A DNA stretch of 4,295 nt from a virus (Duplodnaviria > Heunggongvirae > Uroviricota > Caudoviricetes): IMG/VR virus record IMGVR_UViG_2706794688_000008, one strand, 5' to 3'. The position numbers were made by a program, and so were the translations under genes. Below are positions 230 to 850 of the stretch, in pieces. Position 1 is the first letter of the stretch. Every line of letters begins with the position of its first letter. Below the pieces are notes generated by a model, which saw nothing but the letters and a program-made list of their open reading frames with translations, did not search any database and was not told the DNA's origin.

Positions 230-370
230 TTAAAATACCTGACATGTAATACAGAAAAAACACAAAACCATACCTTAAATAAAAACCTGATTATCAAGCA
301 GATATGCATGGATAAACTACAAGACGAGATATAAACCACCCTGCATTTAAATAAACAATAAACAACATCA

Positions 371-383
371 GAAAAATAATTCT
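371..383. repeat. Copy 2 of the 13-bp direct repeat GAAAAATAATTCT
   Basis: An exact match to 217-229. It lies about 10 nt upstream of the candidate -35 element for the plus-strand 111-aa gene. Confidence 0.6.
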
Positions 384-392
384 GCTCTATGG

Positions 393-420
393 TTTACATT
401 CAAAAATATCATTTATACTT
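393..420 (+). promoter_or_regulatory. Putative sigma70 promoter for the 111-aa ORF
   Basis: TTTACA at 393-398 is followed by TATACT at 414-419 (15-nt spacer, suboptimal) or TACTTT at 416-421 (17-nt spacer). It sits in an AT-rich intergenic region about 40 nt upstream of ATG 460. The call is weak because AT-rich DNA gives many such matches. Confidence 0.3.
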
Positions 421-459
421 TTCAGAACATCACCAGCAAGGCATAAACAAGGAAACTAA

Positions 460-795
460 ATGAAGTGGATTGTGATTGATACAGTTATCCAGCCATCATG
501 CGGAATATCTTTTTCAGTCATATGGAGTAAAATAAAATTAATAATCTGGTATCAATCGGATGCTTTCTTACCTCCTGAAAGTATATTTACACTGACTCAC
601 ACAGGCATCATGCTCAATAACAAAGTGCTACCTGTAACCATTTACAACGTAGTACCATTCAATAAAACATTCTGGAATTCAATCAAAAATAGCCAGGAAT
701 GCCCTACAAATACAGATAACGTATTGAATGAATGCTTTAATAACCGTTGCACTCTGCAAATATGTCCTTATGGACTAAAACAACAAAGTCCATAA
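460..795 (+). CDS. Hypothetical 111-aa protein with a hydrophobic N-terminus and a Cys-rich C-terminus, oriented against the late operon
   Basis: ATG at 460 is preceded by AAGGA (449-453) at 6-nt spacing. A 111-codon open frame is unlikely by chance in DNA of about 32-37% GC. Six of 13 Ile codons are ATA. The C-terminal region has 4 Cys (QECPTN...[16 protein letters not shown]). I recognise no family. Confidence 0.55.
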
Positions 796-830
796 GGAGT
801 TTACTCACATCTGACAAAATCAATATAAAC

Positions 831-850
831 AGCCCCTCCGGAGAGGGGCT
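831..850 (-). terminator. Hairpin terminator (8-bp GC-rich stem, 4-nt loop), better suited to the minus strand
   Basis: AGCCCCTC (831-838), cgga, GAGGGGCT (843-850) form a perfect stem. On the minus strand the hairpin is followed by GTTTATATTGATTTT. On the plus strand no T-tract follows (ggagagtggc). It sits between the convergent plus ORF (stop at 795) and the minus cassette. Confidence 0.5.

Follow-up and report, generated by a model that had tools for sequence, protein, structure and literature searches.

The 4,295-nt stretch of DNA analyzed here (hereafter, the window) comes from a virus of the class Caudoviricetes deposited as IMG/VR record IMGVR_UViG_2706794688_000008. Its plus strand contains an open reading frame (ORF) at positions 460–795, which begins with an ATG codon and encodes a protein of 111 aa. 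We identify this ORF, with high confidence, as iraL, a horizontally acquired lysogenic-conversion gene of lambdoid Escherichia coli prophages, the product of which blocks RssB to protect RpoS. [quoted passage not shown] The gene belongs to the IraM/IraL/RssC family of RssB anti-adaptors and corresponds to c1429 of the uropathogenic strain CFT073 (WP_000871291.1). It is already known and experimentally characterized; it is neither a new gene nor a gene of an exported protein. The protein that a preliminary description of this stretch, made from the sequence alone, had failed to recognize is thus the named and characterized IraL.

The identification is based, above all, on the comparison with CFT073. 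The level of identity between the ORF and the iraL gene of this strain (NC_004431.1, 1343465–1343800) is 99.4% (334 of 336 nt), and the encoded proteins share 110 of 111 residues. One synonymous and one non-synonymous change separate the two genes; the latter results in S74 in place of L74, which is the sole amino acid difference. The similarity continues on both sides of the coding sequence: 158 of the 160 upstream nucleotides are identical, the differences being at positions 426 (A426) and 457 (T457), and the 105 nucleotides downstream, including a hairpin, are the same as in CFT073. Two paralogues are distinguished in E. coli in the literature, namely iraM of strain K-12, induced by Mg2+ starvation, and iraL of uropathogenic CFT073, associated with the unstressed logarithmic phase. 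The identity of the ORF to K-12 iraM is 67.7% at the nucleotide level and 58.6% at the amino acid level (65 of 111 residues). These values reproduce the published identities of iraL and iraM, 67% and 58.9%, respectively (PMC4045071), and are therefore counted as support for the assignment. According to Hryckowian et al. (2014), a sequence counts as iraL if it matches the full length (100%) of the CFT073 iraL coding region with a nucleotide identity of at least 95% and does not overlap with iraM matches; with 99.4% identity to iraL as opposed to 67.7% to K-12 iraM, the ORF falls within this definition. The same is true of the promoter region, for which the definition comprises an upstream sequence at least 96% identical to that of CFT073 and the mapped 5′ end.

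In the databases, the gene is found mostly under another name. The NCBIfam model NF007393, "anti-adapter protein IraM", covers residues 1–110 of the product with a score of 162 bits (cut-off 121), PGAP uses the name IraM as well, and in a megablast search with positions 340–850 every listed row carries the annotation "anti-adapter protein IraM" under the match. The fold is also the same, and 11 of the 15 RssB contacts of IraM are kept. From this, the gene might be taken simply for iraM, that is, for the equivalent of the K-12 anti-adaptor gene that is induced by PhoP during Mg2+ starvation. We regard this as very improbable, given the 99.4% identity to iraL against 67.7% (nucleotides) and 58.6% (amino acids) to iraM. 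In addition, there is no convincing alignment between the sequences upstream of iraL and of K-12 iraM; in the 170 nt upstream, the window and K-12 can be aligned only at scattered A/T columns, and neither the coding nor the upstream region is thus of the K-12 type. The genomic sites differ as well (the lambdoid late region versus e14/ycgX), and IraL acts in unstressed logarithmic phase and contacts only RssB's N-terminal domain (PMC4045071).

Other resources are less informative about this family. PHROGs assigns IraM/IraL proteins to phrog_4407 (241 bits), which is labeled "unknown function". The hmmscan search against Pfam-A yielded only a sub-threshold Nairovirus_NSm match to the window ORF, which was dismissed as noise, and even with the limit set at E = 1, this search assigned no Pfam-A family to the window ORF, to P0001, or to P0009, which is of the K-12 type. 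The precomputed homologue table gives PF11183 for the same proteins, which is at odds with the empty hmmscan result.

The predicted structure of the protein agrees with its assignment to the anti-adaptors. In a phmmer search, residues 1–78 matched the PDB entry 8twd_A, which is IraM 1–78 bound to RssB, with E = 6e-31. AlphaFold2 supplied with only 16 close homologues gave a mean predicted local distance difference test (pLDDT) score of 60, and a 38-sequence alignment of the family was needed for a usable model. The model based on this alignment has pLDDT values of 88–97 over residues 1–80 and of 53–65 in the tail, so that no statement on the structure of the tail is possible. A Foldseek search with the model returned 8twd_A first (TM-score 0.90, normalized to the target; rmsd 1.2 Å), followed by three PmrD structures, and nothing else was found below E = 1. 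In the IraM–RssB complex, an antiparallel β-barrel with a hairpin and a helix was described, together with three clusters of RssB-contacting residues (PMC10844676). The predicted structure of the window protein likewise has a PmrD-like antiparallel β-barrel plus helix in residues 1–78. As for the IraM residues contacting RssB, 11 of 15 are identical, and the remaining four are conservative replacements (T13S, L75I, H63N, and I64V); contact clusters I–III and Pro66 are conserved.

These data also bear on the proposal of the preliminary description that the ORF encodes a small membrane-associated or exported disulfide-bonded protein, such as a superinfection-exclusion or envelope factor. The features behind this proposal are real: the 31 N-terminal residues are rich in I, V, W, and F, and four cysteines (C81, C92, C97, and C102) lie within the last 31 residues. 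Nevertheless, the proposal has practically nothing to recommend it any longer. Neither the sequence nor Kyte–Doolittle hydropathy reveals signal-peptide architecture, a lipobox, or a transmembrane helix in the window protein; the best 19-residue mean is only 1.44, and charged residues are present at positions 2, 7, 24, and 26, of which D7, K24, and K26 break the hydrophobic stretch. This N-terminal third corresponds to β-strands 1–3 of the soluble barrel, both in the IraM–RssB crystal structure and in the model, and it is therefore not a signal peptide or a membrane helix. The superposition on 8twd_A, the outcome of the structure prediction suggested earlier, likewise speaks against a membrane protein. 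Finally, binding to RssB, which is cytoplasmic, has been shown both in vivo and by pull-down for the near-identical protein of CFT073 (PMC4045071).

The function of the gene can be outlined from the work on CFT073, in which IraL, with L74, binds to RssB's N-terminal domain and raises both the level and the half-life of RpoS in logarithmic phase (PMC4045071). The product of the window gene would be a 111-aa cytoplasmic protein, in which the PmrD-like β-barrel (residues 1–78) is followed by a cysteine-rich tail. Its binding to RssB would spare RpoS from degradation, RpoS would accumulate in exponential growth, and this accumulation would pre-arm the general stress response of the lysogen. We infer that the S74 allele acts like the L74 allele; an effect of this replacement on function appears unlikely since the residue at position 74 varies among family members.

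A promoter belonging to the gene itself has been mapped, as follows from the match between the 5′ end of the CFT073 mRNA and positions 427–458 of the window. The published sequence ACATCACCAGCAAGGCATAAACAAGGAAACCA, obtained for iraL mRNA by 5′ RACE (rapid amplification of cDNA ends), coincides with this region in 31 of 32 bases. This places the transcription start at position 427 and the ATG codon at +34, leaving a 33-nt 5′ untranslated region (UTR; 427–459, plus strand). Such a position of the ATG agrees with the published fragment from −100 to +33, which complemented ΔiraL (PMC4045071). The promoter and the good Shine–Dalgarno sequence expected in the preliminary description are thus both present, the latter being AAGGA at 449–453 (plus strand), 6 nt before the ATG. 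Seven nucleotides upstream of the mapped start is the −10 hexamer TATACT (414–419, plus strand; five of six positions as in TATAAT), and a −35-like hexamer, TTTACA (393–398, plus strand; five of six positions as in TTGACA), can be read from the sequence 15 nt before it. In our reading, this pair of hexamers is the putative iraL promoter. A generic promoter scan suggested two other candidates, 352–380 and 511–538, neither of which fits the RACE-mapped start; the scan missed the TTTACA/TATACT pair because it demands a spacer of 16–18 nt.

In CFT073, iraL is transcribed from a sigma-70-type promoter, and both a 5′-RACE product in logarithmic phase and a phenotype of the ΔiraL mutant have been reported (PMC4045071). 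RNA-seq of the same strain indicated that iraL is expressed and is induced 1.6 log2-fold at 37 °C (PMC12890032). The levels of iraL also go up without Fur (PMC7157518).

The recognizable features of the window other than the iraL ORF are all located on the minus strand. They include a DNA methyltransferase gene, two phage tRNA genes, a DUF1737 ORF, and the gene of antiterminator Q (3877–4245; PF03589, 110 bits), from which the direction of late transcription follows; in related unmasked loci, the same strand runs on into the holin, lysozyme, and Rz genes. Together, the window and the related loci indicate that iraL runs against the lambdoid late operon, and in this respect the preliminary description of a 111-aa ORF opposite to late transcription was accurate. 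Seven iraL loci were read for comparison: those of strains FDAARGOS_536 (L001), 300709 (L002), CFT073 (L003), an ST131 strain (L007), 32-4 (L008), and SCU-482 (L009), and that of vB_EcoS-640R1 (L010), a record deposited as a phage genome. In all seven, iraL is opposite to the late genes and lies between Q, with or without the methyltransferase, tRNA, and DUF3927 genes, and the lysis cassette. On the lysis side, it is adjoined in six loci by a truncated DUF1737 gene and in the ST131 locus by a SASA/nanS-p-type esterase gene. The "potB genomic island" of CFT073, as it is named in the iraL paper, is a complete-looking lambdoid prophage.

The homology between the window and the related loci is near-perfect from approximately position 70, inside DUF1737, to the first masked segment (70–1053) and falls elsewhere, as would be expected of a mobile module set in a mosaic background. 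The promoter and the coding sequence of iraL are contained in an AT-rich island at 190–830, the GC content of which is 32.3%, in line with the value of about 32% given earlier. The GC content is 28.3% at 340–459 and 34.5% in the ORF, compared with 46.6% in the unmasked part of the window; neither flank is below 50%. Judging from the sequence, the gene is a prophage moron: it is placed between phage modules, has its own promoter and an adjacent terminator-like hairpin, and deviates in GC content (32% versus 47%). The moron layout proposed previously is borne out by the seven loci, and expression in the lysogen is documented in the CFT073 literature.

The hairpin downstream of the gene (830–851) has a 9-bp stem with seven GC pairs and a loop of 4 nt. 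The folding of the RNA from positions 796–875 gives z = −4.1 for the plus strand and z = −3.0 for the minus strand. The preliminary description was right about the existence of this hairpin, but it is not the terminator of iraL: a T-rich tail, TTTATATTGA, follows it only on the minus strand, which makes it an intrinsic-terminator-like element oriented to stop minus-strand transcripts arriving from the side of the tRNA and DUF3927 genes.

In phages of the lambda type, polymerase modified by Q reads through terminators. Taken together with the layout of the locus, this suggests the following scheme. While the prophage is repressed, iraL would be transcribed from its own sigma-70-type promoter, opposite to the late operon, and the hairpin at 830–851 would stop unmodified minus-strand transcripts before they enter iraL in the antisense direction. 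After induction, Q-modified late transcription would pass the hairpin and collide with iraL or silence it. The antisense slot could then act as a switch, the anti-adaptor being produced in the lysogen and shut off at induction, when antisense transcription driven by Q sets in.

The gene might serve the phage itself, if the rise in RpoS or the sequestration of RssB tunes prophage induction or the timing of lysis, with the antisense position as an off-switch at the onset of Q-dependent late transcription. In favor of this are the antisense position between Q/tRNA and lysis genes in nine of nine loci (the seven iraL loci and two loci with a stx-linked paralogue), which is the same slot as that of stx, and the minus-strand terminator directly abutting the 3′ end of iraL. 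However, the papers found report no induction phenotypes, and the published interpretation is a benefit to the host, in view of the association with uropathogenic E. coli and Shigella and of stress priming (PMC4045071). We consider service to the phage unlikely as the main role of iraL; the two kinds of benefit are not mutually exclusive.

Several points weigh against the identification of the window gene as a working iraL. The spacer between the putative −35 and −10 hexamers is only 15 nt long. A426, directly before the transcription start, and T457, in the 5′ UTR, differ from CFT073 and could alter expression. The functional data concern the L74 protein of CFT073, and S74 adjoins contact residue 75 in the helix. 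The roles of the hairpin and of late antisense transcription are putative. Lastly, the iraL copy of SCU-482 (L009, 3121–3457) occupies a slot that is otherwise the same but carries the annotation of a frameshift, which means that individual prophage copies can decay.

It could be supposed from these facts that the copy in the window is itself an inactive or decaying allele, with its private-looking S74 and two changes in the promoter region, the more so as some published iraL copies carry a −35 mutation and may or may not be active (PMC4045071). This seems highly unlikely to us. The ORF is intact, and only one synonymous and one non-synonymous change distinguish it from CFT073. An exact-match scan of genome contigs gave no match for the S74 allele, while a scan of viral contigs detected it in five independent IMG/VR contigs, and position 74 is variable in the family. 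The S74 allele and the unmasked window match the viral contig IMGVR_UViG_2693429621_000002 (L014) with 99.9–100% identity. The dN/dS ratios calculated by the Nei–Gojobori method are about 0.10–0.15 against the paralogues (0.12–0.14 versus the Stx-phage paralogue and 0.15 versus iraM); since dS is saturated, these values are rough, although purifying selection, the lack of which had been named as a reason to reject the gene, is still clear. As for interrupted homologues, which had been named in the same way, most of the loci read are intact, with the frameshifted SCU-482 copy to the contrary, and interrupted copies are exceptions among the loci read; integrity was judged on these sampled loci rather than on all 1446 copies.

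The cysteine-rich C-terminus deserves separate consideration. The window protein has C14 in addition to the four cysteines of the tail, which form the motif C81-P-x9-C92-x4-C97-x4-C102-P-Y-G (codons at 700–768, plus strand). In an alignment of 38 family sequences, which includes Enterobacteriaceae homologues with identities down to 20%, the only invariant positions are W72, C81, C97, and C102, and C92 is present in 37 of the 38 sequences; the Stx2d-linked copy of strain M7424 has G at position 92. The family-wide form of the motif is C-P-x9-11-C-x4-5-C-x4-C-P-Y/F-G. The mean frequency of the top residue is 0.44 in the tail and 0.46 in the core, so that, on average, the two are equally well conserved. 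In the structural work on IraM, the tail was removed as less conserved, flexible, and proteolytically unstable (PMC10844676). The IraM tail did not come up in a literature search combining IraM/RssB with zinc or cysteine, and neither tail cysteines nor zinc binding were mentioned where the corresponding terms were looked up in the preprint on the IraM structure and in the 2013 anti-adaptor paper. Judging by its conservation, the tail could serve to bind metal through its four cysteines (Cys4) or to sense redox state and thereby control the stability or activity of the anti-adaptor. Both readings, that of the tail as a functional module and that of the antisense slot as an on/off switch, are speculative and, in our estimate, rather improbable.

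The module is widespread. Of the 5426 complete E. coli genomes covered by the megablast search with positions 340–850, 1446 contain it, and in 1439 the coverage is at least 80%. A blastn search at lower stringency in E. coli distinguished three classes: iraL-type sequences with at least 90% identity (1442 records), a class with approximately 77% identity (271 genomes), and iraM-type sequences with approximately 70% identity, which make up most of the 3332 records in the band of 60–80%. When 1.8 billion cluster representatives were searched with a profile, about 50 further full-length relatives were revealed, and those looked up belong to Salmonella, Citrobacter, Enterobacter, Cronobacter, Franconibacter, and related genera.

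The class with 77% nucleotide identity to iraL is a third paralogue of the IraM family. It encodes a protein of 107 aa and follows stx2B directly, in the orientation opposite to the late operon, so that it is placed between stx2AB and nanS-p/holin (4001–4324 in both the O157:H7 strain 9234 locus, L005, and the M7424 locus, L006). Stx2c and Stx2d prophages and some Stx2a prophages carry it. It is present in 271 of the 5426 complete E. coli genomes. Of phage records, 41 contain it (among them, 17 Stx2c-converting and 11 Stx2-converting phages and phages 2851 and 1717), most of them without annotating it. Upstream, it shares with iraL a homologous promoter-like sequence, with TATAAT as the −10 hexamer, and the downstream hairpin AGCCCCTCCGGAGAGGGGCT is identical. 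In Shiga-toxin-producing E. coli (STEC) strains with high RpoS in logarithmic phase, iraL was reported to be absent (PMC4045071); the stx2-linked paralogue might be a candidate to account for such strains. No paper containing both iraM and Stx2c was found in a full-text literature search. This paralogue is apparently unstudied and, like the conservation of the Cys4 tail, goes beyond the literature searched.

The location of K-12 iraM is also of interest. It is found immediately outside e14 as its boundary is annotated, past the icdC pseudogene and beside ycgX, a DUF1398 gene (L004, 6414–8108; MG1655, 1211413–1213107). DUF1398 genes are also found after the lysis cassette in iraL prophages (ybcV in FDAARGOS_536, a gene in 300709, and ydfO in CFT073). 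K-12 iraM may thus be what is left of a lambdoid late region of the same kind and not a part of e14.

The remaining features of the window belong to the late strand. The DUF1737 ORF (26–214, minus strand) is the next gene after iraL in the direction of the late operon, and in the related loci carrying it, it is flagged by PGAP as truncated at the C-terminus. A terminator-like hairpin with a T-run (3777–3796, minus strand) is located just downstream of Q, at the position expected for tR′, and the hairpin scan revealed a second terminator-like hairpin downstream of Q (3468–3451, minus strand). The methyltransferase gene lies between Q and the tRNA genes, which occupy 2041–2200 (minus strand) and have the anticodons TCG (Arg) and CAT. 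The CAT-anticodon tRNA (2125–2200, minus strand) is called Met by ARAGORN and tRNA-Ile by PGAP in related prophages, where it is presumably lysidine-modified. The arginine tRNA of the window has the TCG anticodon, whereas that of FDAARGOS_536 has TCT, and the tRNA blocks of the two are only about 87% identical.

The minus-strand "cargo cassette" of the preliminary description did not survive the comparison. The 191-aa minus-strand ORF at 1045–1620 is an artefact translated through a run of N, and at the equivalent place, two separate reading frames are present in unmasked relatives, a DUF3927 gene of 43 aa and an ORF of 117 aa. In FDAARGOS_536 (L001), the former is at 5737–5868 (minus strand; phrog_1470, "TciB-like"), and the latter, without PGAP annotation, is at 5904–6257 (minus strand). 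The 117-aa ORF is probably a real late-strand gene, since it matches phrog_2873 (unknown function) over its full length with 228 bits.

The main value of these results is in correct labeling: an apparent orphan moron with a cysteine-rich product is a characterized regulator of RpoS proteolysis, carried on lambdoid prophages by roughly a quarter of the complete E. coli genomes. Annotation is inconsistent (IraM in PGAP, unknown function in PHROGs, and blank for the paralogue in most Stx2c phage records), and for this reason, those who read phage genomes will go on "rediscovering" the gene. The Cys4 tail, the antisense slot shared with stx, and the stx2-linked paralogue could modestly extend the field of RssB anti-adaptors. 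If true, the side observations would link the carriage of Shiga-toxin phages to the tuning of the general stress response.

When compared with known systems, the window gene is essentially the same as iraL of CFT073 (c1429, formerly YcgW; Hryckowian et al., mBio 2014, PMC4045071). The promoter, the 5′ UTR, the downstream hairpin, and the slot between the tRNA/DUF3927 genes and DUF1737/holin are alike in both, whereas the phage mosaic around them is different, with the methyltransferase gene of the window being replaced by IS200 between Q and the tRNA genes in CFT073. K-12 IraM (YcgW/ElbA, b1160; 8twd, PMC10844676) shares with the window protein the PmrD-like barrel, in which 50 of residues 1–78 are identical, and the four-cysteine tail, which ends with ICPYGLK. 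It differs in its unrelated upstream region and, according to the literature, in its regulation by PhoP and Mg2+; the K-12 gene is located beside e14/ycgX, whereas iraL of the window is in an intact late operon. K-12 IraM binds both domains of RssB, and IraL binds the N-terminal one only (PMC4045071).

The paralogue downstream of stx2B (phages 2851 and 1717; WP_001303568.1) resembles iraL in its slot, antisense orientation, and hairpin; unlike iraL, it has stx2AB and not DUF3927 as its upstream neighbor on the late strand. PmrD (4hn7, 2jso, and 2rqx) has a similar β-barrel (Foldseek TM-scores of 0.70–0.73 normalized to the target, probability 1.00) and is likewise a small "connector" protein binding the receiver domain of a response regulator; however, its identity is only 14–20%, the Cys4 tail is lacking, and its target is PmrA, not RssB. 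Finally, iraL is similar to the lambdoid morons of the interval between Q and the lysis genes, such as stx, and to bor and lom at other places, in being an AT-rich, terminator-flanked accessory gene with its own promoter and expression in the lysogen. The difference is that stx has the orientation of late transcription, on which it depends, while iraL is antisense to late transcription.

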